The notes under the pieces are model-generated. The model did not search any database. It saw nothing but the letters and a program-made list of their open reading frames with translations, and was not told where the DNA came from. Positions 17,901 to 46,900 of a stretch of DNA of 64,000 nt are shown here, one piece after another; the stretch's first letter is position 1; the number at the start of each line of letters is the position of its first letter. The DNA is taken from positions 55,614,001-55,678,000 of the forward strand of contig NC_043012.1 of assembly GCF_006345805.1 (NCBI RefSeq). Direction: 5' to 3'. The position numbers were made by a program, and so were the translations under genes. Source of the stretch: Octopus sinensis (Eukaryota).

Positions 17901-18844
17901 ATATCTTGTTTTATTTAGTCATGATAGTGGTTTTAATTATTGGATAAGTCAGTGTGTTTGTTCTTGAGCATTTCATCTCACATTGTTCCAGTTCACTCAA
18001 CTGTAAATAAGTTCCAGTAATAACTGGGAAGTTAAATCTGCAACAGACCAATGTTCTGTTCAAGAGGGAGCATTATAAATTACTTCCTGGAAGCATTTCT
18101 TTAGGTATTGAGTTCTTCTGTGCACAAAAATATATGCAAAAAGAAAAATCTTTTGTTGCCATGTGCTATGTAAAGGTGTGTGGCCCAGTAGCTCGTGTGT
18201 TGGGCTAAACAGAGGAGACAAATGGATTAAGTCGATTACATCGACCCCAGTGTGTAACCGGTACTTAATTTATTGACCCTGAAAGGATGAAAGGTGAAGT
18301 TGACCTCGATGGAATTTGAACTTGGAACGTAAGGGCAGACGAAATACCTATTTCTTTACTCATTTTTACCAACTGAATGGACTGGAGCAATGTGAAATGA
18401 AATGCTTTGCTCAAGAACACAATGTGTTGCCCAGTCCAGGAATTGAAACCACAATCTTACAATCACGAGTGCAACACCCTAACTACTAAGCCACACACTT
18501 CCACTAACACATATATAGTGTCTTGCTTGGAATTGAACTCAGAACCTCTAGTTAACTATATTGCATTAACCACTGCCTTCCTCCACAAAAATTATATACA
18601 TGGAAATTGGATGAAGCTCCAGCTGTACAAGTCCTAGGGCTTGAAGTCCATCCCCCTTAGCCCTAAATTTTGTACTGTACTGTGCTGTGCTGTACATCAG
18701 TCCATGTCTAGCATCAGATTTGTCAGGTTTTATTTTATTCTTTTATATATCTTTGTCTTCTCAGCAGTTGTTTTCTATAAGGTTTCCAACCAGCAATCCT
18801 TTCAATATCTTTCCATTATTTATTATCAATATATAATGGGTGTG

Positions 18845-19158
18845 GAGGCGCAATGGCCCAGTGGTTAGGGTAGCGGATTCACAGTCGTAGGATCACGGTT
18901 TTGATTCCCAGACCGGGCGTTGTGAGTGTTTATTGAGCGAAAACACCTAATTCTCCACGGGGCTCCGGCAGGGGGGGGGGGGTGCCGATCCCTGCTGTAC
19001 TCTTTTGCCACAACTTTCTCTCACTCTTTCTTCTGTTGGCCTGCTCGCTTAGCCAGCAGGGTGGCATCATTTGAAGGCTAAAACAATGCGCTTCGCATTG
19101 TGACCAGCGATGTGTAACAACATCTGATAGCCTGGTCGGTCATGGTGATCACGGTGAT
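18845..19158 (+). mobile_element. tRNA-headed SINE (third family); related heads at 49833-50070, 23448-23590, 27247-27460, 59939-60135
   Basis: tggcccagtggttagg A box, ggtt..attccc B box, followed by a non-tRNA body. Confidence 0.75.
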
Positions 19159-19439
19159 ATAATGGGTACAAGCATGATTGTGTAGTTCAAGAGTTTTTAG
19201 TCCCACTGCATCCAATCCAAAAGATTGGAAAAAGCCACTCAGAAGGCCTCCATGATGGGAAGACAATTTAATAAAACAATTTGGGCCAAGGTGGAAAAGA
19301 ATGGGGTAAACAAGACAGAATTGGAAGCACATTGTGACCATCAGTATATAACATTTGATAATCTGGTCAATATAGACAGATTAGTGGGAATATACACTCT
19401 TTATCTTCGCTTTTTAATTCAGAAAAAAAAAAAAAATAA

Positions 19440-19487
19440 AATGAACAACAAAACACATTTGTATATATATTAGCAAAAAAATTTATT
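19440..19487 (-). terminator. Probable polyadenylation site of filamin (3' UTR about 19460-20540)
   Basis: AATAAA at 19487-19482 followed about 25 nt later by a GU/U-rich tract (tgtgttttgttgttc). The sequence between here and the stop codon is free of SINEs. Other AATAAA hexamers lie upstream. Confidence 0.55.
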
Positions 19488-20540
19488 TTAATAGCATATC
19501 AAATTTGCATGCTTCTTAAAAAAAATTAAATTAAAAAATTTGATGGGTAATTTTTTTCCTCTCCCCCTCCTCTCTCTCCCTTCCTAGTGGCATTACCAGA
19601 AGATAGGCGTAATTAATTAGGGTCACGTTGTAAGACAGGGAGGTTAGGAGGTATTCCAGTCTGAACTTTGATTGTGCTTTTATTGAAGAACTTTTAACGG
19701 AAAGAGATAGCATCAACTATAGATAGAAAAACACTAATAATAATAATAATTATTATTATATCAAAAATGAAAATAGCAACAATGCAGGGAAAATAACTAC
19801 ACTAATAACATCTCCCCCAACCTACCCTTCTGCCCAGCCCTGCATATCTTTCATTTTATTTTATTTTTATACATTTTCCTGCTATCCTTGAAAATTTGTA
19901 CAAATATAACTAACAAAAATAGTTTGATTTTCTTTATGTTTCCAATACATGTAAGAAAAAAAAGGTAAAAATTATAAATTTCCTTTTATTAATCTCAATA
20001 TTTCTTCAGCATTATAGAATATATATATATATATATAGATAAAAAAAAATTGCAAAAAAAGTTTCAATTTTAAGACTAGAATATAAAGCTCAGTAACAGT
20101 AATTGCTTGTAAGGAAAGCTTAATCCAATAAATATAATTTGTCAAGGTGGACAAGCGAAACTGCGAGGAAATCAACAGAAGTATTATATATTTATAAAAA
20201 AAAAAAAAAGCACCATTTTCAAAAAAAAAAAAAAAAAGGAAAAAATATAGCAAATTGAATATATTTTGTAACAAATTATTTTGTTTTCATCTGTTGGATG
20301 AGGAAGCTTCAAAATATAATCGAATTGATGGGTAGCATCATTGGCTGAAACTGGTTTCTTGAGATTCAGATATTAATCCGACTGATGTTGGTGTGTCATG
20401 GTTCACTCCGCGTGCACTCAAAAAAAAGTTACAAAGGTTACTCTCGGAAGTTGACAGGGGAAGTCATGAAAAGGAAGTGGCGAGGGTGGGGGTCATTTAA
20501 CAAAATTGGGAAAAATAAGAGGATGGGAGGTAAGATTGGT

Positions 20541-20728
20541 TCACTGAACTTTTACACAGAATGGACTGCCAGGGATATGATCATCGCCCCATTTCACCAT
20601 CAGCATATATTCTCCGACTTCCTGCACGAGATAAGACACATTGTACTGGTTATTTCCAAGATGCTTCACCACTAATTCCTCACAAGGTCCTTTGGGTCCT
20701 CGCATACCAACGAACATTATATTGACAC
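20541..20728 (-). CDS. FLNA: Filamin terminal coding exon (Ig24 dimerisation repeat): [62 protein letters not shown]
   Basis: cag acceptor, TGA at 20543-20541; KWGDxHIPGSP signature of repeat 24. Confidence 0.97.
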
Positions 20729-23700
20729 CTGCAACAACAGAAGAGAGAAAACAAGTTTAATAGTGTTGAAACCAACTATGCTGGAGAGTACCCTACACAT
20801 ACAAGCTTCATACCATTCTGAATATTTCCTGGAAAGAACATCCTATCACACACACGCACAAGGGAGAGAGTGTTAATCCATTAAATCTACTCCAGTGCTC
20901 GTCTAGTACTTCACCAACCTTGGATGAAAAGCAAAGTTGACCTCAACAAGATTCGAGGTCAGAAGATCTATTTATTTAGACAAATGATAGAAAAATGAAA
21001 TTAATGACATTCATTACTTAACCCTTTCGTTACTGTATTTATTTTGAGATGCTCTGTGTTTCTTTCAATTACTTTAAATATAACAAAGAATTTAGTAAAA
21101 TAACTTCATTATCATTAAGCTAGTGTTAGAAACATAAATTGTGACTAAGGTATGGTGGAAGATTTTCATTCAAAACTCATGAAAACAAGACCTTTGTACT
21201 ACAGAGCCAGAGCTGGTTTCAGCCGGGTTGGTAACAAAAGGGTTAAAAACCACTACAATTGATCTGATGCATTCTTGCACCTGTAGTTCAAAAGTGCACA
21301 GTTATTTATTTTACATCCCACATGTAGAATGCACCTCCTTAGGTGATTGCTTAAATAAGTTCTTCATTAGATACTCTTGCCATTTCATTCAGCATTCTAC
21401 AAGGTTTTCACAAGGATCTCTCTTAAATTTACATATCTCTGAATCATCATTTCAGGCCATTTTTCCATGCTGGCTTGCTCAATTCAACAGGATCCTCCAG
21501 TGAGTCAGATATAAATCCAATATTGGTGCACAGTGCAGTTTTCAATGTATAAATGTGCAAGGGTCCATATAATATACACACATTACACATGCATATTTAT
21601 GCTTGTGCATTAATTACAGACATATGTCGTGTTTTCCTGTCATTACCTCCCCTCTCCAACATTTTCCTAATATCTTTGTCATTCCTTCAATTCCTCACTC
21701 TGGCCCTTTTTATTGACGCTGGTTACTTCCCCACTTCCCGTCTTTCTCACTAATCCCAATATATTAATCAGTTAACTTTCTTCTTCCAGTTCTCTCTGAT
21801 GAAAAAACCGACTTCATTCCTTCCTCACAGTACATTATATATATATATATATATATTCCAGTGTTCTCATTTGTTTTACTAGTCACTGGTTTCTTTGGAT
21901 TCTATTGTTTTACTATCCAAAAGATGGAGCATCTTTTACACACTTATGGAAACCAGAAATAAGAACTATTTCTTTAGAGAGACATAAGCCAAAGAGCAAG
22001 CTTAAAAATCATCCACAAAATCTGTGGCCCTCAGCTAATGTTAAAAATCATATAAAGTGAAAAGTGACAAAGTACTTACCAGCATTGGTAGTATCAATGG
22101 TGAAAGTGTTAGCCTTGCCACGAACTGCACTGTTTAATCCATTACCACGAGCAACAACTTTACTGGGATCAGACTGGTATTGCTGTACACCACTGAAGCG
22201 AGTAGTTGTGCTGGTTTTAGTGACAGTCTCTACAACAACTGAAGCTTGCTCATGGAATCCAGAAGCATGGCCATCACCTAAAAACAGAAACGAAGTGAAA
22301 ATTTTAAAACATTTGTGATTTAAGTTTACTACATTGCATATAACACCTACATTGTTAACAGTTTTGGGATTTTTATATATGAAGGAAACAACAAAATTGA
22401 AAGCTTGGATGAGCTCTAACGATTTAGCATTCAGTTGGCTGAGTCAAATGTAATTCTTAATTTATTCACCGTTTTGAATAAATCCCACATTATCATGTAG
22501 CTTCAAGGTTTTAATGATGTCATTATTATTTTCAGAATGACATTGTCAGGTAGGTGAGAGATGCCAGATCTGGCCAATTTGAACATAAGACATGTAGTCC
22601 TTTAGCATTTAAGCTAGTCATATCTGGCCTAAATATTCTAAGGATTCTTTACATCATTACATTATAGCATTGGTGGTTGTTCCTCAATTCACATTTCAAT
22701 AACTTACTTGTAGCCAAACTCTCAGTAAACTGAATATTTAATATCTGAATTTCAAATTATCCAGGGTCTCAATGTTTAGTATAGCTTCTTTTAAGATCAA
22801 ATCACATATCTAAACAATCAGTTATTCAATCAAAATGTGCTGCCTGTTTCATTCAGATAATCAATGTTCAATTGTATAATTTAAAAAGGTTTTTATCTTT
22901 TTTTTTTTTTTTAATACATCACATACACTCCTTATACTTGTTTAATCATCACTCATTCACGAGAATAGACCCGATAGCTTATGCCATACTTTTAGTAGCT
23001 GTTTCGGTTACCTGTTTAGTTGCAAGAAGACACAAACACTCTTGGCCTTCCCATCCTTCATTCAATGGAAAATGAAAGATATAACAACTGGAAAGGGAGA
23101 GAGTGACACCAGCAATGTGAAATGAAGTGCTTTTACTCAAAGACATATTGACCAATCCAGGAGCAAAAAGAAAAAAAAAAAGGGTCCTTCTCAAGTTGTA
23201 CCAACTCATAAGGGCTGGTTTCCTGGTGCATGCATCAGAATTTTTAATTTGGAACATAACCCTTTATTTGATGCAAAGGCATATACTTTTCTCATTCCAC
23301 TGTTTTTCATGGCATTTTTCACTTCAGTTGATTTTTTTTTTTTTACCAATTTTTGTGGAGGAAGGCAGTGGTTAATGCAATATTGTTAACTAGAGGTTCT
23401 GAGTTCAATTCCAAGCAAGACACTATATATGTGTATGTGTTAGTGGAAGTGTGTGGCTTAGTAGTTAGGGTGTTGTACTCATGATTGTAAGATTGTGGTT
23501 TCAATTCCTGGACTGGGCAACACATTGTGTTCTTGAGCAAAGCATTTCATTTCACATTGCTCCAGTCCATTCAGTTTGTAAAAATGAGTTATGATCATAA
23601 GCTTAACACACGAGCTACTGGGCCACACACCTTTACATAGCACATGGCAACAAAAGATTTTCCTTTTTGCAGATATTTTAGTGCAGAGCAGAACTCAATA

Positions 23701-23871
23701 CCTAGAGAAATGCTTTCAGGAAGTAATTTAAAAAAAAAATTTTTTATAATGCTTCAAATTCTTCTTGACATGATATTTAGAAGATGTAAATATATGACAG
23801 TTTGAAATACAAAGTTGACCTCTTAAATTTGGCATTCTTTGGTCTAGCAGATTTTGAATCTGAAACTGGTA

Positions 23872-23914
<43 letters not shown>

Positions 23915-26513
23915 CATATGTATATATCTGAAAGAGAAATGGGATGACTATATTTATACACAGACATCCCTTAAGGGGGCTATCTGTTTTTTGGCATTTT
24001 TTCATTGACTGGCAACAGCCAGGATGCAAGGTTGATAGATTTGAGAGAGAAAGAGAAGAAAAAGAGAGATAGAGAAAAGAGAGAGAGAGAGCGAGAGAGC
24101 GAGAAAAAGAGAGCCTACCTGTAATCTTTGCTTTGAATGGAGAACCAGCAATACCAACGCCACCATAGCGGATATTAATAAGATAGTCTCCGGGTGCTGT
24201 TGGTGTGTAGCTGAATTCATATCCTTCTTCAACTTCTCGGCAATCTAATTTCACCTTAGATGGGCCTTCAACAGTAACGGCTAATGCACCAGAGCCGGCA
24301 TTAACTGTGCTAATTATGAATTTGGCTACTTGACCTACAAAAACGAAATTCAAACCACATTAAGCTTTTCATTTACACTGTAGGTATTTAGCAACAGCTT
24401 AATACCTTTGCAACCATACATCAAGAAATATATTACCTAGAGGGTTTTAAATTAACTTTTTTTATTTTTTGAATGCAAAATTATTAAAAGATGAGTAATT
24501 TAAAATGAGCTTTTGCCTTATAAAATTAGGTATGGTCTTAGGTGAATTGCTGTCAAAGAGTTTATTAGAAAGTTAACTGCCATCTCTGAAAATGGATTCC
24601 AATGGCATAAAAGTAAAATCTACTAAAAAATTTTTTTACATTTAAAATGCTATGTCCCTGCCCAACACAAACATATCTTAATTTTAGATACATCTATACA
24701 AGGTAATACAGAAATTATATATTTCATTAAAATATGAAATTCAATTTCATTTTTGGATTTGGTTTGCAAGATTCTTTATATGAGTTCATGTGTTGAAGCA
24801 TATTCTGTTGTGTCTGGAGAGAGTCATTTTCTTTTTGTGCCTTATAATTTAACACACACACCGGTAAAATTTCCACTTATTTCTTATTTTTATTTTCCTA
24901 AAATTTTTGTTGTGTCTTTCAACCTTTTCAATAAGGTGAGTGTGTTAAATTATAAAGCACAAAAAGAAAATGACTCTCCACAAACACAACAGAATATGAA
25001 ATTCAAATTTTCTGTTTATTATTCTGAAATTAGATTTTTAAATAGTCTGCAAAAATCCTTTAAAATAATCCATATTTAAAATTTTTTTTTTTTCATTTAG
25101 AATACAAAGTTCCATCGAAATTGACTATTACAAATAATATGTTCTTAAATGGAGGAAACTAAACTGGAAACTTGTTTGAACGAATCAAGAAGTTTAATAT
25201 AGGGACAGGTGTGGCTGAGTGGTTAAGAAGCTCGCTTCCCAACAACATGGTTCCAGGTTCAGTTGCACTGCAAGACACCTTGGGTAAATGTCATCTACTA
25301 TAGCCTCACATTGACTAAAGCCTTGCAAGTAGATTTGGTAGAGGAAAACTGAAAGGAAGCTCATTGTGAGTGGTACTCCACAACTGCTTGGTTTGTTTAC
25401 ATCCCCATAACTTAGAGGTTCAACAAAAAGACCAATAAAATAAGTACCAGGCTTTAAAATACAAAAAAAGGTATTGGGTTTGATTTATTCAACTAGAAAC
25501 ACTTAAAGGTGGTGCCCCAGCATGGCTGCATTGTAATGACCGAGAGAAAAGATTTAACAATTTCCTTCAAATTTCTAGCAAACAGAACTAGCTTCCAAGT
25601 CAGAGCCATCTTAGCATCACTATAGGACTTCAGGGACTGCTGGGAAACAGCCTAGTGTGCCCATGCCTTAAGACAATATTGCTCCAAGTCAAAGACTAAT
25701 TAGTTACTTACGTGTGCGTCCTTGATATAAGCCTTCTCCGTAAGCAGTGACCCTTCCTGGATCAGCATCAACTTTACCAACAAGTACTCTGAAAGGACTG
25801 CCTGGGATATGACAACCATCGAAAGTAACATGGACAAGGTGAGTTCCATTTTCTTTAGGGATGAAACTGACAGCATATTCACCTTAAAAAGAGAAAAAAC
25901 AAATTAATAAGTAGCAGAGGTATTTGTAGTTTGCCTAATTATATAAATATTTTTATAAGCAAAAGGGTGAACCAATATTTTGATTTGTCTTAATTCAAAA
26001 AACTAAAGATATTCTGAAACAGAAAAAGAATAATGAAAAACTTAAACTATAAAAACTAAAGTAATAAATGAGAAACTCTGCAAGTTTATATATAATATAG
26101 CTCAAGGTTTTAAAATATCTTTAAAGCCAAAGCTACATGATGTTAAATAGACGAAAAAAGAAAATATTCATTAAGTGCTGGTGTGCATTAAGCAATTTTT
26201 CTTTTTGTTTTTACTCGTTGCATAAAAACTGTTCACATGTGGAATCATTTACAGGATTAAACAAATATTTTTTTTTTTTAAGTAACAACAAAAAGTAAAA
26301 CAATATCAAAAGCTTCATTATGATGAAAAATATAGCCATGCTGCATAAGATATTACACATTAAAGACAACAAAAACAAGAAAAAAAAAGAGAAATGATTA
26401 ATGACTAGCTGTATAACTAAAGTGTCTAGACCAAAATGCCATTGTATTAACTTTAAATTTTCCTTTTTTTTTTAAATGCCAAACTATGTATATGTGTGTG
26501 AGTGTGTGTATGG

Positions 26514-31083: not shown

Positions 31084-34000
31084 TATTGAACAGTGAGAAT
31101 GAGTGATCAATACTGCACTGGTGAATAAATATTCTTTATTTGTGGGTTACCAAGTTTGCCTCATGGGGGAACATTGGTGCTCTTCTCCAAAATGGAAACA
31201 GTCTTGTTAACCCAAAAATAAAGTGTGGGTGTGTGTATATATATAATTGTGCTTCATAATAGATCTTACAAAGAGATTATAGAATCTTTAGTTATAAAGC
31301 TCTTCAATTTATTTTCAAGATTATAGATTCCAAGAATAATCTTGGAATCTATAATCTTGAAAATAAATTGAAGAGTTTTATAACTAAAGATTCTATAATC
31401 TCTTTGTAAGATCTATTATGAAGCACAATTATATATATATATACAAAACTAATACCTGAAATTTTCAAGTCTAGGTCTGAGAGATAATGGAAAGCTACAG
31501 GCTTTTTCTCCCTTAGCTAACAGAATTTGATGACACTTGCAGAAAACACCAATAACAATCAAGAAACAAGATTACTGCTCAACTAAAATGATATATACTA
31601 CTGATTATTATTATTATTATTATTATTATTTACTGCAATAAAATCAACTTTTGGTTTTTGTCTATCTTGTATGAGATCATATTCAGTAGTAAACATGAAC
31701 TAGATTGAATTCAATAGATTACGTCCTGCCTCTTCAAATTTAGAGTATCATGCTGATGATATGAGAAAACTATTGTTTTTTTTAAGTGTGAATAAAATCT
31801 AATCAAAATATGTGCCAAAGGCAGAATGAAGTGCATTGTTGCAATGTAAATGGTATTGCAGATCTAATGGAACTGATGCCAGCATGGAAAAAATGTCAAG
31901 AAGCATAACTATGATGAAAATTAAGATATGGTTCCTGCTATAAAATCTTCATTTTCTACTGGAAAATGTATAAATGAGACAATCGTTAAAATATTAATGA
32001 TATATATGTAAGGAATGAAATATTAACCGATTCCTTTTTTAATGAGAAATGGTTAGATAAAAGACAGTAGTAAAACGCTTATTCAAATAAAAATAAAAAT
32101 TAAGAGTTGCTTTATAGGGGAATAAGAATTTTGTGCAAAAATAAAGAATCTGTTTTAATATTTAATTAAAAAAAAAAAATTAAAATTTGCAAAAACAGAT
32201 GAGTGATTGGTAAAATAAAATGAATAAAGAGGTAGGAGGAGGAGGAGGTGACTGCATTCAACCAACTATTCCTGACTAAAAACAGTCAGAAATATGTCAG
32301 AATGGGCCGAAATGTGAGTCTTGTGTCAGCAGTGACAAGGCACTCTTACCTACTCTGGAAGGTAGTGTTTTCTGGGCTGAAGGAGAAAAGTAAGGTCTTT
32401 CTTGTCTAAACATTATAAACAATTTGTAATTTGTTATATTTTCCTTTTAGAGAGCATGACTATTATTGAAATATATTTACAAAACGTTTTTAAGCTAAAA
32501 ATAAAACTCATTTGATGTTAGAAATAAAAGTTATTGAAATACATTAAAGTCAACATTTGCTGAAATACAATTTTAGATAATTTTTTTTTTTTTTAGCTAT
32601 TTTTTTTTGTTGCTACTTTCCTATGGCTACAAATACAGTTTTAACCCTTTGAACCAGAGTATGCTTTAGGAGGTACAATTTCATTTAACTATCCCCTGAA
32701 AGATCTAAAAAAACAAGCAGCCGCATAGCTTTAATTGGCAGAAACCATTTTAGTTTCAGCTGTAAACAGTCAGCCATAAACACCAAAGACATATAGTTTA
32801 ACCCTTTCATTACTGTATTTATTTTGAGACACTGTGTTTCTTTCAATTATTTTAAATATAACAAAGAATTTAATAAAATAACTTAGTCACAATTTATGTT
32901 CCTAACACCAGCTTAATGATGACTAAGGTTTGGTGGAAGATTTTAATTCAGAACTTTTGAAAACAAGATATTTGTACAACAGAGCCAGAGCCAGTTTTGG
33001 CCGGGTTGGTAACGAAAGAGACATTTAGCTCATGTTCAGAAAGTTTTGAGTTCTATTCTCAGCCATGTATTGTGTCCTTGAGAACGACTATTTCTTGTTA
33101 CTCCAGTCCACTCAGCTGGCAAAAATGACTTGTACCTGTAGTTCAAAGGGCCAGCCTCGTCATATTCTGCATCAAGCTGTGTCTCCCAAAGAACTACATT
33201 AAGTGTATGCATATTCGTTAAGTGCTTAGCCAATTGCACATTAAATTTCACGAGCAGATTGTTCTGTTGATTGGATTGACTGGGACACTCGTCGCCTATA
33301 ACCAACAGAGGGCCAGCCAAACACAAAACCAAGTGACCACCCACTTTTTACATTCTCTGAGGGTATAGTCACATGAAGTCATGCCCACTAAAATGTACGC
33401 ATAAGTTCAAAGGGTTAAATAAGTTAACAAGCAAAAAATGGGTGGGGAAAAAAAAAAAAAGGGCGGGAAACAACTTACAAAGACCAATACAATAAAAATA
33501 ATTACCTTCATTAATTTCATTGACTAAAGCATCATCCTCTACTCCAGAGGGTGAAACAACCTTTGCAAGCAGTTTACCATGAGCACCATTGAAAGACACT
33601 TTGAAGACGGCAGGCTTGTTTACCTAGAAGAGAACAACAAAAACTAATGAATAAAGGTTTTAAATTTTTACAAACTCTTTGACATTAACCCTTTAGTATT
33701 CAGATTATTCTGTTGAATGTAATGCTTGTTTATTCACATTGTTTTGAATTTATAATCTATTATCTTGTAGCTTCGATATTTTGATGATATGTTTGTTTAT
33801 TTTAAGAACAACATTATAGGATACATGTGAGAGGCTGGATCTGGCCAGTTTATATATTAAAGGGTTAAAATTAAGGGATGACATCTGGAAAAGATCCTTA
33901 AACTCAATTTAGTTATTTTCATGAACCTATGCAACACTATGTTCAAAACTAAAATTCATACAAATACATATCCATCCATACATGTATGTATGTATATGAT

Positions 34001-37000
34001 GGTAAACCAGATGAAACTTCAAAGAATCAATCATTCCCTTGTAAAAATTAATGTGCTCTACTAAAAAGTATTCAGTAACCCTTCGTTAATATTAAATTGT
34101 TTTTCTGCACAAGCTGATATATAAGCTAACATGAATAACCATGCAAGCAATGACATAAACAATGTGCTTTGTACAGTTTCCATTAATCTTTTACTTGTTT
34201 CAGTTATTTGACTGCGGCCATTCCTAATGCCAACCAATCCAAGAGTGTAATGGTTGCTTTTACATGCCACCAGCACAGGTGCCATTTGCGTGACACCAGT
34301 ATCTACCACAGCTGCAATATTGCTTGGCTTGATGAGTCTTCTCAAGCATGGCATACTGTCAAGGATCTCGGTCATTGCCTCCATGAGGCCTAACAAATGT
34401 TATTTTAATTTTGAGATTAAGAAATTAAAAAGAACAAAGAAAAAACCTGACTGGAATGATTAATATTTTAAATCATAATGCAAATATCAAGCTAAAATAT
34501 TTGGGTTCAAATAGGCACAAGCAAAGCTCAAAATTATATCAAACTTCCTCTTTTAGAAGAAGATTGTACAAACACACAAGTTCTAAATATAATATTCCAT
34601 AAACTATTTCAAGACATCTCACAAATATACTACAGACAGAGTCTATACATTGTTGTTTGACATACTAGAAGTAGTAACCAAATTTGCCTCAAATCATATG
34701 CTTCCATCTTAAAAACAGATGGATATACTGGACAATGTTGTTCAAGACCTATTAAAGAGGAGATGGTCATGGTTGGAACCTCCGTTTACAACTGAGAAGA
34801 TGTGGTTATATATATATAAAACCCCTTATTCTGTCAAAGAGAACACAATGTTAGCAATATTACCTGCAATCCTTTCTCTTGAAGAGAATGAACTGAGAGT
34901 TTTTGAGCATCTCCAACACTTGGCGAAATAGCCACTCTGAAAGGTGACTCTGGGATGTGTTCATCGTTAAACTTAACAGATACCAGGTACTCTCCTGCAA
35001 ATTATATAAATAAAAATGTCATAACTTGTATCTATAACAGTCAAATTCCAATTGCAACACAACCAAATTATAATTTTACAGTAAGAGATAATTACAGAGC
35101 AAAAAGAATGAAAAATTTATAAATAAGTAGGATACTGACCAGGCTCAGTGCACACATAGTTCACACCACAAGAACCATCTTTTCTATCTTCAAAATCTAT
35201 TTCAGCTTTAGATGGCCCCTCAACAGCAATAGACAAACCACCAGCACCAGCTTCCCGAGTATAAATGTTGAATTCACCTTTAGAAATAGAGAAACAGTTG
35301 TTGTATGAGAAGTGTATGAACAGGAGTAAAGAAAGGCTGCTGCAATAATACTGAGTTATTTATGATTGAAGCAGAGCTAAAAGATTTATGTGAACTATTT
35401 TGGAAGTTAATATTAGATTTTAGATTTTAAGATTTTACATGTCAAGTGGGGAAAAAGAAACCAAGAATTTACAAATATGTAATATTTTGGTCTCAAAATT
35501 ATGATTAAATTACTTACAAGGTGAGTGTACTTCTCCTTTCTCTAAGCCAGGACCAGCTGCATGCACTTTGTGGGCTCCGCCTCCAGTAATAGGCCCAACT
35601 GTGAATTCAAAGGGGCTGCCTAAAGACGAAAAATACAAAGAAAAATTTATATATACATAGATCTGGAAATCAAATCTTAAATTTCAAAATGAATTAAAAA
35701 AATTTTTATTTATTTTTTTTAATATCTGAGAAAAATCTAAAATGCTCAAAGAACCTTAAAATATGCTCACCTGGAATATGCATATCTTTGTGCTTTACAC
35801 TAACTGTATGGACTCCCATTTCTTTGGGAACGAATTTGATACTATAGTGACAGTCATTTAAGCTAATTACATCACAAACTTCAGTTACACCTGATGGGCT
35901 GGTTACAGAAGCAGTCATATCGAAAGGACTTGTGCCTATAATGAAACAGGAGAGATATTAATTACATATCTTTATTAAATTATAACACTGAAATTAACAT
36001 TAGTAAAATGATAATTTCCTAAATTGAGCATTACATAAATATTTGTTTAAATATATTTTGTCTAAATGTTTTAGAAACAAGAATTAGACAAACTAGACAA
36101 TAAATACAGACATTTCAAAGTTTTTTTTTTTCTTTGTTTTTCTTACAGCAGGACAATTGCTATACTGCAGTTAAACTATGCTGAAGTTTCTAATTTTAAT
36201 TTAAAACAAATACAATTAAGAGACAAAAAAGTCAATGTTGTTAACACACAAGTTTATAAACAATGATGCTTCCATTTATGGTATTGGTTGCCCAATAACA
36301 AAGAGCAAATGATATTTAATAATGGAGCAGTATAATTTTATCAACTAAGAAAGATTAAATTCTTAAATATAAAAATGTTCATACAATGAAATGATCTGGT
36401 TTAATTAAGATAATCTGAAATTTGTAACAGGAGGTTGCACAAATAAATAAAAAAATTCTTTGAAAGAAAAATTGCATTTTTCTGTAACTGACAAAAGATG
36501 CTAGTCAGGTGGGAAAAAAAAAACACAAATAACTGTGAAAGCACCATAAAGCTATGGCAAATCTAGGTGATAAGTTAATTCTATTTTCTGCATGGCGCTA
36601 ATATAAAAATAAATAAATCAACTTCAGTTTTTTTTCTCTTTCAGCTGCTGTAGATGCGCGAAAATAACTGTGAATGAACGTGTGTGTGTGTGTGTGTGTG
36701 TGTGCATTATATACATACACACACACACAAGATAAAATATAAAGAATCCAAATTTTTAGTGTCCAAGTGAAAGGAGGACACTTTTATAGCAAATTTATAC
36801 AGGATGGAAGGATAGAGACAACTGTGTGAACTCAGTTTGAATGGTTGGAGGGAAAAAAATGAAGAGAAGCAGTTCATGATTATGTAAGGATTAGAAAAGG
36901 TGTTTAGTACAGAGTTTAGTGACAATGTGAACGAGTTGAGATACTGAAGGCAAAGAGAAGAAGCTGAAAGTGGTAGACAGAAAGTAAAGCGAAAGAACAC

Positions 37001-40000
37001 GAGTTCATTATAGCAGTACAGAAGCAGACAGACAACATTTGAATGGTGGGCCAGAAGTTTTAAAGTTTCAGTAAATCGATAGCATGTGAGAATTTTCTTA
37101 TTAGGGTGCAGTTGAAATTTCATGTGTGAATTAAGTCAAAGTGCAACGGGCCACAATCATGGCCATTAGGCACAGGTTGGCAGGCCACAATCATGGCCCA
37201 GATAGATGCATTTAATTTATGGGCGTTTGTTGGGGTTTAATGTCACTCAAACGCTCCGATACCCACCAGAATGCAAGAGGGCTAATAATTCAACTAATGA
37301 TTTTTCAGATGATGTAAAACTTGCCACCATTATATACTAAGATAGTCTAACTATTTTTAGCTTTTTATGTGTGCATGGAAGTCTCATTTTCATAAAATGT
37401 GCTCAGCAATCCATGCTGCGTAAGTGCAAGTCCCAGCACTTTATGGGTTAAGTAAACCCACAGTGGCCCCTAGTGTTCTAGTGCAGTGCGTATTTCAGTT
37501 TTGTAAAAAAGTAGCAAATCAAAGCTGAAATAGTATGTTCATGACCCTAAAAAGGGAGCACAATTTTGTGAAGCAAACTTAACTTAGAAAATTGTGAGGT
37601 GGGAAGCCGTGTCATAGGATTTGAGATCTACTTAAACATAGTATATTTAGGTTTTGCGGTGGTTTGAAATGTATGTTGTTCTGAGAGTACAGAGGAAGCA
37701 GAGTTGCAAATTTGTTCCTTAAAATGTCAAGTGTTTCAAATCTCCATTTCAGAAATTTCAGCTGTTCAAGGATAGGCAGAACTAACAGAAAGTGTTGACA
37801 TTTCATATGAACAAAGTCATTGTGATAAAATAAGGGAGATAAGTAAATAGGCCATTGATGGAATTGAAGGTCAGAAAGGAATCTGATATAGAATCAATAG
37901 AGTGACAATAAAAGAAAAAACTTGTTTACACAAGGAGAACTTCTCTGGAACTTCTCAACTCGGTTGTAATGGAGCTTTATGAACAGGCAGTTGCATCCGG
38001 TTTTCATACCAGACAGAACAGAAGACTTTCAATGAGGTCAAGAGCAGTAACATTGCTTTTATTGAAGTTAAGGGCAAGAAGCCACTGATGTGATACATGA
38101 AAGTGGTCAAAGGGAATTTAGTTTTCTAGAATCAGTACAGATTGGGAAGAAATTAAATGATGCAGTAAGGATTGTTTATAATTTTATAATTATCCCATCA
38201 ATTTCGAGTTGTTGGATGGATATAATAGATCAGTAGTAATCAGGATTGGAGAAATTGCCATAAAATGATAAAAATTTGGTCAAGATATGGGCAAAAATGA
38301 GCAAGTGTCACCAATTCCTAACACTGTTTCAAATGAACAAATGACAGTTAATCAAATGATGTTGCATGTATTTCATAACTGTATAATAGTGACACACCAG
38401 ATTACATCAGTTGAATCCATTTGTTGGATGCATCACAATAGCTGTTGTCTGCAATTTCTATTTTAACTGTTTACTGCCTATATTTAAATTAATTAATTTA
38501 GAAATTAATCAAAAATCTGGGAGAGTGGAAATTTAGAAAATAAGTTGATTTTCATTTATGTCTAAAACAGCAGCTGAATAAGGAAATAATTTAACAATAG
38601 CATCTTACATTAAACTATGATGACAGATTTTAATATGAAACCTTGAAAACAGGCAATCTTTTATAACTGAATCAAAGATGAATTCAGTGGTGGTGATATT
38701 GAAGGATTAAGCTTTCTTTGGCCAAGAGTAAATTCCTTAATATGTAGTCAATATAAAATTGACAAAATATTTTATCAATTAGCTGATTTTGAACAAAGAT
38801 GATGTGTTTGTTAACTAAGTGGAAAAGATTTAAATATAGACAAACTTCATTTTATTTATCTTTATAGACTTAATATTTATATTTTGGGATTATTTTAAAA
38901 CATGGTGATCATTCAGAATGATTTCCAACCAGTTTTCTTCAAAATTTTCCAATTGTTTTTGACTAAATTAGACTTCTATAAAACTGACTTTTAAAGGTAA
39001 AAAAAAAAAAAAAAAAATAGTAGCCTTTAATTTGAAACTTTTAGTAAAATTAAAGCATCTAAATTGTTAGCAATTGAAAGCTTAAAATATACAAGGAATA
39101 AAAGTGAGCATTTGTATAAATTTACTCACAATATTAACACAGTACAGTAATAAGCAATTTTATATGAGCAACAACGCAAGATTCATAGAAAACAATACAA
39201 TAATATTTAAACATTGTGACACTTTAGTACAGAAACAAAAAAAAGACAAAACAAAAAAAAATGACAAAAAACAAAAACAAAACTAAGTTTGGTTATTTAT
39301 AGTCAATATTATTCAACATTTTCACATTGACAAAAACAGACAAACAATTAAAACAAAAGCTAAACAATGAAAGTTCCAATGCTGTGCAGATCAGAACAGT
39401 AAACACTAACATGACAATCACATAGCTGGATTCCTCAATACAAAATGGCCAATATGGTCCAGATACTGATATTACACACCACCAAAAGGTAAAAAGAGAA
39501 AATAATTTATTGTAGATTTTTCTACAAAGGTATTAATATTGAGGAACCCAAAACAATTTTCTGAACTCGTGCATAAAAGGATACATGCAGCCTAATAACG
39601 TTATTAGAGATGTATACTTTTACACATATAGAACACCATGCATCTATTGTTTCTGACAATGCAAAATAAAAAATAAAACAATTCTTAACCAGGACTAATT
39701 TAAATCATCTTGGGTGGTCCCTGCACTTATCAAGGGAGTGCTGTTCTTGCTCAGATCTTCCTGAGTCAGAGGAAAAGCAAGTCCCAGTATGTCAGAGGGA
39801 CAAGTGGGTGCAGAGAAAGCCAAGAGAGTCAGCAATGCAAGATTCAAAAGCCTTAATGGATGGATGAGAGCTTGCTCAATTTGTGAGTTTGATGGATGAT
39901 CAGTGACTCCTTGTTCAGTTCATCCACCCTAGTAAGGGTGTTTATTGATTCTATACAGGCCAGGACGAGAACCTGGAGTGGCATCATGAACATGAAATTG

Positions 40001-40924
40001 ATAATAAAGATTACATGAGCTAATACAGAAATGGATTAAGATAAGCCAGGGATAAGACCAACCGAAGAACATAAATATAGACCAACTAATAGTACAATAT
40101 TAAGACAATATGAATATAGACCAGTGCTCCACAACCTTTTTTTCACTTGCAGTACACTTAAATTCTTTTCAAATTCGGTAGCACACCTGAACTAAAAATA
40201 TAAAAGTATACGGGAAAAAATATTTAGGTTACACTATGGCACACCTAGCAATGTCTCACAGCACAGTGTGCCGCAGCATACCAGTTGCAGAGCACTGATA
40301 TAGACCAACAAAATATATATACATGTACGTATACACTACAATGTTAAGACATAAAGGGACAAAGCTAGTTGCGACATGCAGACAGAATATACTTCTTGCG
40401 TTACAAAGTATAACTACATTACTTACATAGCCACATCCTGTAGAAAGCTTTTAGTAATTAGATATAGACAATCAACTAGAAATGTAATTAGACAAGATTT
40501 TGCAACTACTAATACATGAAGCATTTCCCAAACCACTATACTTCATATCTAAGAATTTAAGAATTAGTAAAAACAGATAAAAATCAGAAAAAAAAAATGC
40601 TATAAAAATGATTGATATAAAAGATCAGTGTCTGTGGAAATGGTAAAGTAAGAACATCAATGACTCATGTATTTCTATATTTCTTTCCCACAGGTGTTTT
40701 GTGTAAAAATATATTTCCTATATTCAGTGAGTTATTTTAAAACGCAACAGATAATAAAAGTATGAAAGATAGGTTTAAAGTAGAAGCTGCAAATGAATTA
40801 AGTGTCCAAGATTAAACTATACTGCTGAATAAATTTTTTCTTATATTCATCAAATATTAGATTTTATAATAAATGTTTATTTAATATTTCTTTTGGTGGT
40901 AAATAACTTCCCTTTCTGAAGCGA

Positions 40925-40964
<40 letters not shown>

Positions 40965-43900
40965 TATATATCTATCATCATCATCATTATATATATATAT
41001 AAAAAAAAAAAAAAAATAAAAAAAAGTAGCTAAATGGATTTTACATCTGGGAAGGTATTTTATTTCTCATGCTCTGCTAGAATGATACATTGGAGTATTT
41101 TGAAAGAATTTCTAGAATATTTATATAAAATGTAAATACATAAAGAAAATGCAGTGTCATTGTTGTAAACAAACTAAAACAATATAAAATGTGATAGAAT
41201 CAAGTTTGCTTACAAATATATTTTTGAACCTCCTTAAACTTTATTTGGAAGAAATTTATAGCAAACATGGTTTTTAATCTATAAGAAATAGCAGATATAA
41301 GGAAAATGTGGTATAGCTGCAAAGTGTGTATGTGTGTGTGTGTGTAGTTTCAAAATACACACATGTTAGCATGGTCACAAAGTACAAGTGTGTGAGTTTG
41401 CTGTCACAAAATATGATTGCAGTGCTCCAGCATGGCTGCAGTCAAATGATTGAAACAAGTAAAAGAGTCACATGTGATAACAGTGTTTGTGTATATGCAG
41501 TGACAGTACTTGTATGTGTGTGCATGTGTGACAGTACATGTGTGTGTGTGTGTGATGACAAATCCATCTTACACACACCCATGATGAAATGCTCAATCAT
41601 TAAAATTGACGTAAAATTTTTAACGATTTCTTCCCGAGTTCAATCCCAATGTTATCCAAGACAATAACATTGTCATTATATGGTTATTTTATGTTTATTA
41701 TATCTTCATAAATTTATTTTTATCTCCTACTCCTAACATATAATTATAATAACTGCACTATAATTCTAAAATATTATAATAGAAAAGAATAGTTGGAAAA
41801 TGCAGTTGAAAAAGTAAAAACAAACCTAATTATTATTAATCCAAAATAAATTTTAGAACTGGTCAAATGTGAACATAAATACTTCACTAAAATCTTGCAA
41901 ACATCAGAGTGTTTGCAAAATAAAATGTCATTTTATTTTTTATGGATAAAATGAAACCCCTTAAGACTTAAGGATAATAAAGAATAATTATACTACTACT
42001 ATTACTACTACAAGTAGTGATACAGAATGTCTTACCAACTGATTTCTTTACATCCTGATTGTTAGTAATGGTAATAATATTGTGTGTGTCCCATTTTACA
42101 TAGGGTATATAATCTGTAACAACTTTGACAGGAGACGAATAAGACTTTACAAGAGTAATTGGTACTGTACGCATTTTGAAAGATTTTGTTTCTTTGTGGG
42201 TTTCTTATTTGTTTTTCCTTTGTTATTTGTTTTTTAAAAATCACAGAAACAAAACAGTTCTTTTGGGGTGAAAAAGAAAGAACCTATATAAATATATACA
42301 GTACTTCTAACTGTCAACAAGTCACAGGCAAGGAAAATGTAATAAAAAACTAGTTTTTGTTGAAGAAGCTAAACGAAACTGAAATAGATTCTCTTTCTGG
42401 AGAGAGAAGTGAAGAATGAGCAATATAAGCAGTAGCTGAAAGCTTAAAAAGAAGCTGTGCTGGCTGAGAGAAGTTACATTATTGCCCTCCAGCAAGGTGA
42501 GTAAAAATATCATTTCAGCAGCAGCAGACAAGTATCTCTACCTTACTCCCCCTCCCACCCACTCTTGGCACTGATAACAAAAATCTTGAAATGCCAGATT
42601 TCACAATAGCTGGAAGTTGTCTTCAGAAATAGAGCCAAAACTCTTTTCTACGTACTGACAACATTTTTTTGGTATGTTTTATTAACTAACAGCAACTGGA
42701 CTGTTAACATGGAAAAAAAAAAAATCTACAAGAATGAGGAAAACTTGATTGCAATAGAAATGGCATGGAACTAATTAAATTCTTGGTATTGTGTGATCAC
42801 AATTATTTTTTCTTAATAGTAAAAGTTAAAAAAAAAAAAAACTGAACAAACTTAATGCACCAAGTGAGTTTGACAAAGTACTTTTTTTTAAACTAACAGC
42901 AACTGGACAAAGTTTGACAAAGTACTTTTTTTTAAACTAACAGCAACTGGACAAAGTTTGACAAAGTACTTTTTTTTAAACTAACAGCAACTGGACAAAG
43001 TTTGACAAAGTACTTTTTTTTAAACTAACAGCAACTGGACAAAGTTTGACAAAGTACTTTTTTTTAAACTAACAGCAACTGGACAAAGTTTGACAAAGTA
43101 CTTTTTTTTAAACTAACAGCAACTGGACAAAGTTTGACAAAGTACTTTTTTTTAAACTAACAGCAACTGGACAAAGTTTGACAAAGTACTTTTTTTAAAC
43201 TAACAGCAACTGGACAAAGTTTGACAAAGTACTTTTTTTTAAACTAACAGCAACTGGACAAAGTTTGACAAAGTACTTTTTTTTAAACTAACAGCAACTG
43301 GACAAAGTTTGACAAAGTACTTTTTTTTAAACTAACAGCAACTGGACAAAGTTTGACAAAGTACTTTTTTTTAAACTAACAGCAACTGGACAAAGTTTGA
43401 CAAAGTACTTTTTTTTAAACTAACAGCAACTGGACAAAGTTTGACAAAGTACTTTTTTTTAAACTAACAGCAATGGACAAAGTTTGACAAAGTACTTTTT
43501 TTTAAACTAACAGCAACTGGACAAAGTTTGACAAAGTACTTTTTTTTAAACTAACAGCAACTGGACAAAGTTTGACAAAGTACTTTTTTTAACTAACTTT
43601 TTTAACTAACTTGACAAAGTACCTTTTTTTAATTAACAGCAACTGGACTGTTAACATGGAAAAAAACTCTACAAGAACAAGGAAAACTTGATTGCAATAG
43701 AAATGGCATGGAACTAATTAAATTCTTGGTATTATTTTTCTTAATAGTAAAAGTATAAAAAAAAAAAAGAACTGAACAAACTTAATGCACCAAGTTAGTT
43801 TGAAAAAGTATTTTTTTAAGTGACTTGCAGTTTATGAAGGGAATGTGCATGGGTTAATCTGCAGTCCAAAAGTAATGCTGTTAACTATAGTATCAAATAT

Positions 43901-46900
43901 GAGACTTCATGTAGGTACATTATGATGTGGAGGTGAGGATCACACAGTAGAAGACATTAGAACCATAGGGAATTTAATTCAATAAGGTGGATTTTTGATT
44001 CTTCAAAATATGTGTATTTATATATAAAACAGAGCCAATGTACTAAACACTTAGGATCATCATAGAGTTTTTATATATCTGAAATACGATACCAAAGAGT
44101 TTCAAAACATTTTGTTCAGTAAATCTGAATCTTGAAGTAGAGTTTCATGATTTCAGAAATGGAACAAAACTTATAAGGAACCCAGAGACAAAGAAAGAGA
44201 GAAAGGGATATAGATAAATATAATTTTTGTTTAAAACACAGAAATGATCATTTTAACATTAGATAAATGGGTAAAAAGGCAATTCAGATATATAAAACAG
44301 ACAATATGAAGATCCAGAGAAAACCGTGTATTGGAGGATAATAACTGGCTTTAAACATTTTTAAATTTAGTATCAAAAGTTACCTCTGATAGCCAAATAA
44401 TTTTCTGTAGGAAAAACAATGCACAAACATAGCTTTATTGTAAACAGAAAAAAAAAATACATACATACACACATGGAAATACATAACGAGGAAGAATGGA
44501 AACTATCTGAAGTGAAATAACTTTTAAAGAACTTCCAGGGGTGAAAAAATTGTACAAATAACTATTTATCATGAAAAGATGGAGAATAAAAAAAGTGTAA
44601 GGTTTATGTTTGGATGTTCAAAGAACAATAATTTACTGAAATAAATCTTCAGACTTAACATTTTTTTTTCTTCTTCCTTTCCTATTCTATCATTACTAAA
44701 TATTATTCAAATAAGCCTGCTGGCTATTTGTGACATCAGGACCTGTAAAGATACCGAAAGGCATTCCAGTGATGGCCATCCTTATCTTTGTAGAAGCATC
44801 TAAGATATTCTTTTCTATGCAGCTGGAGATATCACTCGAAAGACTTTTGTAGGATTCTTTTTCTTCTTGAAGGTTTGGGACAGAATTGATTCGATACATT
44901 ACAAGGAAACTTTCCTTTCATACCATTTGCTTCAGCTTAATCCAGTTTCCTGGCCACCTCTAATTAAGGTGTCCAATATACGAAAAAACAGATGAGGCTT
45001 AAGTAGTAAGTTCACTTGACTAATAGTAAAGTTCAACTCCATTGCTTAATCCAGATATCATTCAATCTTCTATATAGACTACATGATAAACAATGTTATT
45101 GGCTGGAGCTGTCATTCAAAAGATTGTTCATAGTGCAAGAGTAATCAGATTGTTTACATTGCAAAAGTAAATGTAATGAAAGTGAGTTCAATTCCACCTT
45201 AAGCTCAAACATACTTAAAGACAACAGAACATCGAGAAGATGAAATTGCTTAAAACAGTAGAAAGAAAGAAAAAAAGATGCTAAGAATCTATAAGACTTA
45301 TTTCAGTATTAGTAACACATTAAAAAGGTGTAATATAATTAAGAAATTTTCTATCTAATTTTTCACTTGATAAAAATTTTTAGATTTAAAAGAGTACTTG
45401 ATGCTAAAGAGAGTATTACAATTACTGAAGCTGACATTTCACATTTTATAAAGTTTCATGTCTGAAGATCAGAGACATGAAACTAAATGTGAAGTGTCAA
45501 AAGTATTCGTATGAAGCTATTACAGAAGAAAACATAATGGAGCAGGGGTGTGGGGAATCAAGGCACGGTTGGTTTCGCTTTTTAACACAAAGAATTATAA
45601 TACAGACACATAGGGATTAGCTAAATCCATACTACTGAGTTGTTTTTTTATATATATTTTTATGAACATCTTTCAAGAACACATGAACACACTAGATTAT
45701 AAATCAGCAAAACATGAAAAGAATAAGTTACCTGGAATTTTTAAACTGAGTTCACATTGGCTTCCTATGTGTGTGATATCAGCAGCTTCCCGATGTCTAG
45801 TAATACGTTCAGTAATACGAGAGGATGGTTCACCACCAATTTTCACACTGAATGGACTGCCTGTTAACAGAACAAGTGAACAACAGGGTTTTAACAATGA
45901 ACACAAAGTAATATTAGAACACTAATTTAAAATACTAATTGATAATATGGCACAGATGTGATAGTGTTTGAGAAATTTGCTTTCCAACCACGTAGTTTTG
46001 GGTTCAGTCCCACTGCATGGCCCCTTGGGCAAGTATCTTCTACTATAGCCCCAAGCCAGCTAGAAGCTTAATGAATTTTGTAGATGGAGACTCTAAAAAG
46101 CCCATTGTGCATGTATGTGCATATTTTTGCATCTCCTACACTTGACGTCATGTGATTGTTGCAAATAAATGTTCATTTCCAATATTTTATGAAAACATGT
46201 TTAGTCAAGAGGAAATATCACTGTTTAGAAACCAGTGACAAATGGCAACAGGAAGGGTGTCCAATCATAGAAAGTCTGCTTCAATAAATTCCACCTGAAG
46301 CATGCAAACATGGAAACTAAGAAACGATATAGATATTTTGTGAGGACTTAATTTTATGTGGTACAAGGCAACTTCACTAGTGTTGGTGCCATCACAAAAT
46401 GCATCGCCATAAACTATGTGAAGCAGTTGACTAATGACAAAATAAGTGTTAAGACACTTATTTTGAGAAAATGACAACTCTTAGTGCAGGTACCATAAAA
46501 AAATGCATCTGGTACTCTTAGGAGAGCAGTTGGGGATAGAAAGGCTGTCCAAATTAATTAAATTTCCATCTTCTTACTGCCAATATTCTGGTGGTTCTTG
46601 ACTTTATCAATCACCTCAAAAGGACCAAAAGGCAACTCTGATATAATGGATATAACAAAACGCCATAAGGTATTTTTTGATGCTCTGTTAATTCTGCTAA
46701 ATGCCATTACAAAGAATAAAGAAAAATTTAATGCAATGTGGAATAACATTTTAGTAACAAAAACAAAAAAATTTTAATTATCAAAACTAATTACCTGGAA
46801 CATGGACATCAGCAAATTTGATGTTAATGATGTAGGTACCAGGTTCTGTGGGCTTGTAAGTAACACCACATGTACCATCATCGTTGTCTTTACACTCAAT

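Follow-up and report, generated by a model that had tools for sequence, protein, structure and literature searches.

The filamin locus and its divided repeat 20

The 64,000-nucleotide stretch analysed here (the window; Octopus sinensis contig NC_043012.1, forward-strand positions 55,614,001 to 55,678,000) carries a filamin gene on its minus strand, running from approximately 63.4 kb to a stop codon near 20544 in window coordinates, which are used throughout. A 9.8-kb intron between exons 45860-45732 and 35935-35771 splits immunoglobulin-like repeat 20 (Ig20) of the encoded protein. Within this intron, contigs from public RNA assemblies reveal a further exon, spliced from 42036 to the next shared exon, that probably opens a minor transcript and is predicted to encode a short filamin with a new N-terminus.

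The window is AT-rich, with a G+C content of 34%. Four exon translations matched the Pfam family PF00630 (Filamin/ABP280) with E values of 2e-8 to 1e-16, identifying the locus as a filamin gene. Exons of this locus align in colinear order to residues 131-648 of a molluscan filamin (P0011), those downstream of the junction described below to residues 167-648. The last exon (20756-20544) also matched PF00630 and aligned to the C-terminal residues 568-648 of P0011; Ig24 is thus retained.

The canonical exon upstream of the intron (45732..45860, minus strand) is 129 nt long, is in phase 1 at both ends and encodes strand G of Ig19 together with strands A and B of Ig20, ending in the residues LKIP. 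The shared exon downstream (35771..35935, minus strand) lies behind the letters tatag, opens with the last two bases of a glycine codon and supplies strands C to F of Ig20. Its translation (35933-35772) corresponds to positions 41-88 of the 93-position Pfam Filamin profile. The exon aligns to residues 131-181 of the human filamin A structure 2j3s_A, and its best matches among solved structures were repeats 20-21 of filamins C, A and B. Three alternative partners were found for it: the canonical exon, a 21-nt microexon and the new exon.

An exon within the intron is joined to repeat 20 in RNA contigs

The new exon had been proposed in an earlier note made from the sequence letters. The start codon, upstream stop, reading frame, donor and phase that the note described were all found on the minus strand at the positions it had given. 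An open reading frame (ORF) of 46 codons (42037..42174) begins with caaaATG at 42174, and an in-frame TAA (42205..42207) closes the frame upstream of this ATG. One further base (42036) gives the exon a phase-1 end, and is followed by the GT (42034..42035) of a G/GTAAGA donor, with the exon boundary at 42036/42035. The glycine codon split between 42036 and 35935-35934 keeps the ORF in frame with filamin, the join reading K-S-V-G-T-S-P-F-D-M.

Twenty-three RNA runs were found, all as assembled contigs and with a library type guessed by the search tool. Seven of them, from five studies (X1, X2, X5, X9, X13, X14 and X20), were compared with the window, over 33000-42860 for X1, X2, X5 and X13 and over 41600-42860 for X13, X14, X9 and X20. 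In all four runs compared over the longer stretch, the four canonical joints of filamin were present with depths between 126 and 1429, and these runs therefore represent complementary DNA (cDNA). In contigs of X1, X2 and X5, the canonical exon 45732-45860 was seen behind exon 35935 as loose ends at 35937.

The junction between 42036 and 35935 was present in three of the seven runs (X13, X14 and X9), representing two of the five studies. In each case the first 28 letters of a contig match the beginning of exon 35935 exactly, and the contig then continues as genomic sequence upstream from 42035. In X13 the joint (35934/42035) was carried by one contig at a depth of 29.8, with 28 letters on the short side and CT..AC borders on the plus strand, equivalent to GT..AG on the minus strand. 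The match on both sides of the junction was at least 99% in X13 (2/2 records), 95-99% in X14 and at least 99% in two of the three X9 records. Thus, the donor at 42036 is spliced to exon 35935 as predicted, and the spliced transcript is almost certainly real.

Upstream of the donor, the contigs reached without splicing to 42193 and then 42239 in X13 (depths 29.8 and 13.2), to 42391 in X9 (depth 25.1) and to 42473 in X14 (depth 17.6). A separate X9 piece covered 42379-42549 at a depth of 3.3. The exon accordingly runs unspliced for at least 438 nt, and is taken here as 42036..42473 on the minus strand, the extent of the X14 spliced contig; its 3' end is fixed at 42036 and its 5' end is provisional. 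In all three runs it stood 5- to 10-fold above the intron background, and no cover was found over 41729-42029, immediately downstream of the donor. Across the 2.72-Gb genome the region of the new exon occurs once, the only exception being a local duplicate of its upstream flank.

A loose end at 42237 in X1 was considered as a splice site and rejected. Its letters are absent from the window and no AG precedes it, and it was taken as a contig break at a length-variable T/A run. Within the leader, the window differs from X1, X2, X5, X9 and X14 at 42236 (one T fewer), 42285 (T>G) and 42356 (TTG put in), whilst X13 has the letter of the window at 42236 and does not cover 42285 or 42356; these differences reflect an allele that the assembled animal carries or else a mistake in the assembly. 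The covering runs showed no difference in the 138-nt ORF, and one substitution and three indels in the leader, a comparison that is uninformative at a divergence of ~0.4%.

The exon probably opens its own transcript

Contigs cannot map a start, and the 5' ends of the junction contigs lay at 42239, 42391 and 42473. Over 41600-42860, the contigs of X13, X14 and X9 ended upstream without a loose end and were joined to none of the filamin exons further up. With a 3' end that is fixed, 5' ends that vary and no upstream join, the new exon shows the pattern of a first exon, and we consider it probable that it is one. Most likely, it is a minor alternative first exon with its own start site inside the intron. 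Transcription would then start between about 42240 and 42550, and translation at the ATG at 42174.

This ATG is the first for any start downstream of 42477, has an A at -3 and is preceded by no ATG within 42476-42174; in frame with filamin and first in line for starts below 42477, it favours the peptide being coding. The only ATGs within 42175-42560 lie at 42479, in another frame, and at 42513, which is in frame and opens a 63-codon upstream ORF with its stop at 42322.

An A-rich leader (42240-42175), a TATA-like tract (42285..42298), an initiator-like (Inr-like) TCAGT (42382-42378) and a G-rich box (GGGTGGGAGGGGGAG; 42546..42560) had also been described in the earlier note, and all are present on the minus strand. 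A reading of the TATA-like tract (~42290) and TCAGT (~42380) as core promoter was not supported, however: both fall within the stretch that is transcribed in X14 and X9, and therefore cannot be the core promoter of the transcripts seen there. It is possible that the TATA-like tract serves a shorter transcript, as the cover in X13 stops at 42239. The G-rich box, which lies ~75-90 nt upstream of the furthest spliced-contig end (42473), may have a promoter role. A bacterial-type promoter scan, a method not meant for animal genes, gave results at chance level, and a search of 41500-44600 against Rfam returned no family.

A minisatellite of 18 copies of a 44-bp unit (42867-43648; 96% matches) lies directly upstream of the new exon. 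Its flanks (42695-42866 and 43624-43795) form a direct duplication of ~170 bp, the copies being 86% alike, and no other copy was found in a genome search.

A predicted short filamin with an unmasked repeat 21

In the mechanism that we propose, an internal start site within the long intron splitting repeat 20 would give rise to an exon that is spliced to the next constitutive exon, and the resulting isoform is predicted to bypass the canonical exon 45732-45860. The product would comprise 46 new residues followed by Ig20 from strand C onwards, Ig21-23, hinge 2 and Ig24, giving a length of ~520 residues (46 + about 476). Because the translation of 35933-35772 occupies positions 41-88 of the 93-position profile, the filamin part is predicted to begin ~40% into repeat 20. 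The product would be devoid of the actin-binding domain and of any of rod 1.

The new exon lies downstream of all filamin exons from 63.4 kb to 45.7 kb. No actin-binding domain made of CH domains was found in the same product, the junction contigs joining no upstream filamin exon. Without a CH domain, the product would represent a filamin fragment form and not a canonical filamin. The earlier note had suggested a short isoform that has no actin-binding domain and is still able to dimerise. The first part of this suggestion agrees with the lack of an upstream join and with downstream exons that encode the rest of Ig20 and Ig21-24; the second stands as a prediction from the retention of Ig24. 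Taking these observations together, we assign a probability of roughly 0.6 to the reading that this is a minor alternative 5' exon, likely with its own start site, predicted to encode a short filamin of ~520 residues. That a functional short protein is made is a more tentative proposition, and one we think somewhat doubtful. The short isoform could already sit in public annotation, inside the cluster of the long form.

Filamin repeats 20-21 act as a force-gated switch, in which the ligand groove of repeat 21 stays hidden under strand A of repeat 20 until force pulls on the molecule. The canonical exon 45860-45732 aligned to positions 87-126 of 2j3s_A, with LKIP ending at 126. The construct of this structure is reported to span residues 2046-2329, for a chain of 288 residues (PMC1948075), and the end of LKIP corresponds to residue 2167 if the four extra residues of 2j3s_A are N-terminal. 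The human filamin-A and filamin-B splice variant var-1, in which exon 40 is skipped, is described as lacking 41 residues; the exon is 123 bp long, and the long intron behind it contains exon 40B/C in FLNB (PMC2199218). The corresponding var-1 construct is given as residues 2046-2125 followed by 2168-2329 (PMC1948075). The octopus exon has the same phase-1 borders as human exon 40 and a similar size (129 and 123 nt). Alignment, phase and size mark it as the counterpart of exon 40, and intron positions appear to be shared between mollusc and human.

The Ig20 A strand is reported to mask the CD face of Ig21 (PMC4554727). Judging from this report and the alignment to 2j3s_A, the part lost from the new isoform includes the masking strand, in keeping with the earlier note. 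By analogy with human var-1, a product without strands A and B of Ig20 would have the ligand groove of Ig21 permanently unmasked. As the dimerising repeat is retained, it could serve as an adaptor that depends neither on actin nor on force, or it could compete with the long form.

No Pfam family was found in the 46-residue peptide. It showed no recognisable likeness to the canonical exon, with which BLASTP gave no alignment. Additionally, 18 sequences were used to build a profile of the canonical exon, and this profile was compared with the peptide and with the tails of four short filamin models from other animals described below (P0014, P0058, P0015 and P0016). None of these was among the 20 best rows, 19 of which were shuffled versions of the new peptide (~2 bits or less) and the remaining one the canonical exon itself. 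Prediction of a complex between the peptide and Ig20(C-G)-Ig21 of the molluscan stand-in P0011 (residues 173-330) returned a score of 0.01, uninformative either way. The capping of Ig21 by the new peptide, which the earlier note had raised as an option, found no support in any of the analyses made.

If the prediction is correct, the gene would make an adaptor that is always open and not coupled to force, since it starts behind the masking strand, retains the end that dimerises and carries no actin-binding domain; such an isoform would be a natural control experiment for the model of filamin as a mechanosensor. The case also illustrates how public RNA assemblies can confirm an exon that had been predicted from nothing but the raw sequence.

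Evidence against a short filamin and alternative explanations

Several observations weigh against the reading set out above. The transcript is scarce: in X13 the depth was 29.8 against 1272.8 for the main filamin contig (~2%, contig depth being a rough measure). No junction contig was among those listed for X1, X2 and X5, of which X2 comes from the same study as X9. In these three runs, unspliced contigs crossed the donor (41786-42716, 41802-42669 and 41983-42638) at the depth of the intron background, and X20 gave no contig on 41600-42860. The three junction contigs stop at three different places, and a far upstream acceptor is possible. Transcripts starting above 42513 would have the 63-codon upstream ORF before the start codon.

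The peptide itself also gives cause for caution. It had no homologue among 1.84 billion representatives, none in two word-based searches and no second copy elsewhere in its own genome. Its codon-usage score was 0.01 per codon, compared with 0.49 ± 0.20 for exons and -0.28 ± 0.23 for stop-free intron windows, and ~10% of 2031 intron windows reached the same score. In this window, an ATG-led frame of at least 46 codons in the needed phase was found at 87 of 3505 GT sites on the plus strand and 159 of 3559 on the minus strand (2.5-4.5%); judged on sequence alone, the combination of ORF and donor appears only mildly unusual. What raises the finding above chance is that RNA contigs of X13, X14 and X9 carry the predicted junction. 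Finally, Ig20 shortened by strands A and B may prove unstable in this product. A recombinant Ig20 var-1 fragment (2167-2235) is described as having been made for nuclear magnetic resonance (PMC1948075), so that a remnant of this kind can at least be made.

Many of these points would equally be met if the exon were a by-product of cryptic transcription, whereby a weak intronic start fires in some tissues, the first strong donor (G/GTAAGA) joins the next acceptor, and the ORF is coincidental and yields no useful protein. The ~2% level in X13 fits this explanation, as do the lack of a junction contig among those listed for X1, X2 and X5, a peptide without homologue whose codon usage is not exon-like, and the frequency of ORF-plus-donor combinations. 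Furthermore, the minus strand of the window contains 45 GTAAG sites, so that a nearby donor is easily found. Conversely, the exon stands well above the intron background with no cover just past its donor, it recurs in two studies, and its first ATG is in frame, with an A at -3 and 300 nt free of upstream ATG. In addition, the same junction is used for other N-termini in other spiralian gene models, as described below. We therefore regard a mere by-product as unlikely, if far from negligible.

The new exon might alternatively be an internal cassette, or poison exon, entered from exon 45732 or from the microexon, with stop codons that truncate the long filamin or trigger nonsense-mediated decay. 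The unmapped 5' end leaves room for this arrangement, AG sites lie behind pyrimidine-rich runs near 42487 and 42464, and the homologous intron of human FLNB is reported to hold an internal exon, 40B/C, that truncates the protein (PMC2199218). However, within 41600-42860 the contigs of X13, X14 and X9 showed no joint or loose end tying the exon to anything upstream. Moreover, the X14 contig ran straight through the AG at 42464, and the low-depth X9 contig through 42487 to 42549. A cassette exon is consequently highly improbable. An artefact, in the form of a chimeric contig or of genomic or pre-mRNA contamination, might be suspected from the guessed library type and from the mere 28 letters of downstream exon in each contig, but can hardly be credited given one canonical GT..AG junction with only two ambiguous letters in three runs and two studies, single-copy sequence with a close match to the contigs on both sides, and the presumption that a word-graph contig extends no more than 28-30 letters into a shared exon before it branches.

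Other features of the locus

The 21-nt microexon (44384..44404, minus strand) lies in the same 9.8-kb intron as the putative first exon, with a ctacag acceptor and a gtaact donor. Its acceptor is strong (tttttcctacag), and its inclusion lengthens the B-C loop of repeat 20 by E-N-Y-L-A-I-R, placed between LKIP and G. The microexon is the listed form in X13 (at 35937), and X1, X2 and X5 show the direct join. Of 18 related filamins in which the LKIP context was present, none had a comparable insert.

In the neighbouring intron, a 57-codon ATG-led frame ends in phase 1 at a GTRAG donor at 46577 on the minus strand, a second example of such a combination. The segments 41225-41553 and 33987-34315 gathered summed contig depths of 14,000-24,000 in X1, X2, X5 and X13 and are high-copy repeats abundant in RNA assemblies. 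Within 33366-40507, eight of the 26 listed differences between contigs and window were T>C on the plus strand (A>G on the transcribed strand), several of them common to runs of different studies. These may be polymorphisms or adenosine-to-inosine editing of pre-mRNA.

Short filamins in other animals and comparison with known isoforms

To our knowledge, short forms of this type are known as proteins only in flies, with one of them organising the postsynapse, in addition to cleavage products in mammals. A literature search, judged from search listings and not from full texts, found no description of a short mollusc filamin. A protein search with the translation of 35933-35772 returned 57 proteins, among which were three complete short gene models with other N-termini. 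Two are from sea slugs, Elysia marginata (GFR73948.1, P0015; 687 residues) and Plakobranchus ocellatus (GFN93493.1, P0016; 784 residues). The third is from the rotifer Rotaria magnacalcarata (622 residues) and belongs to a cluster whose 24 members come from several Rotaria species and Adineta; the Rotaria models (CAF3874766.1 and relatives; P0014 and P0058-P0060) have 622-652 residues.

These models resemble the predicted octopus isoform in that a unique N-terminus is joined at the same glycine before T-x-P-F-D-M, with five Pfam Filamin stretches continuing to the C-terminus. They differ in that their N-termini are 138-312 residues long and unrelated both to the new 46 residues and, across phyla, to each other. 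Moreover, they are automatic gene models, and each could be an isoform started in the same intron or a mini-filamin gene of its own. Three Rotaria species share a conserved N-terminus, in which the stretch V-P-Y-F-H-G-F-K-F-Q-T-L-P-G leading up to the junction is invariant, and the two sea-slug N-termini align weakly. A tblastn search of the window with the foreign N-termini gave nothing better than E 3.7.

AlphaFold2 models of P0058 (Rotaria) and P0015 (Elysia) placed the N-termini (residues 1-140 and 1-216) below a predicted local distance difference test (pLDDT) score of 50 and without secondary structure; the alignments were shallow, so that this is no proof of disorder. The first strand in both models was D-M-x-A-x-V, corresponding to strand C, and the idea that the foreign N-termini supply a replacement strand B found no support in them. 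A broader and distinctly speculative extension, which we think improbable as it stands, is that mini-filamins have long been launched from the intron following the exon 40 counterpart in spiralians at large (cephalopod, sea slugs and rotifers). An internal promoter there would give rise to a dimeric protein, Ig20(C-G)-Ig24, without actin binding; its N-terminus would differ between lineages and probably be disordered, and its Ig21 groove, permanently open, would bind integrin-type ligands without force, so that the protein tunes or competes with the mechanosensing long filamin.

Short filamins without an actin-binding domain are reported in flies, where FLN90 is described as a proven scaffold at the neuromuscular junction (PMC5173320; bioRxiv 10.1101/2020.10.13.337626). 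The FLN90, or 90-100 kDa, forms of Cheerio have no CH domains and keep the C-terminal repeats up to the last one, as predicted for the octopus isoform, and they are made from a separate, shorter transcript of the 3' part of the gene, as is probable here. The fly forms are, however, reported to contain eight or nine Ig repeats, whereas four complete repeats (Ig21-24) and about 60% of another (Ig20 from profile position ~41) are predicted here, the ~520 residues amounting to about half the size. The octopus form would also start inside a repeat and carry 46 orphan residues, and it is minor and known from RNA contigs only. A C-terminal fragment of filamin A made by calpain likewise has no actin-binding domain and is reported to have functions of its own (PMC5173320), but it is larger and arises by proteolysis and not from its own transcript.

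Other isoforms involve the same part of the molecule. FLNC has an insertion of 82 residues in repeat 20, a placement given no finer than the repeat (PMC7216277), but this insertion sits inside a long filamin. The FLNB variants var-2 and var-3 use exon 40B/C, reported to lie in the intron after exon 40 (PMC2199218), the counterpart of the intron studied here; they are long filamins without the last four repeats and thus the mirror image of the predicted form.

A parallel to the start of the predicted isoform is offered by var-1. In var-1 the same stretch of Ig20, strands A and B to LKIP, is lost, and the filamin part of the new isoform would begin right after the position of LKIP, where var-1 resumes. 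Because its masking strand is gone, var-1 binds integrin tails better. It differs in being an internal deletion in a full-length, actin-binding filamin, whereas in the new form everything upstream, including the actin-binding domain and repeats 1-19, would be absent and a new peptide present instead. Filamin isoforms without an actin-binding domain are already known in kind; what would be new in the octopus form is a start inside a repeat, at the var-1 boundary, together with an orphan peptide.

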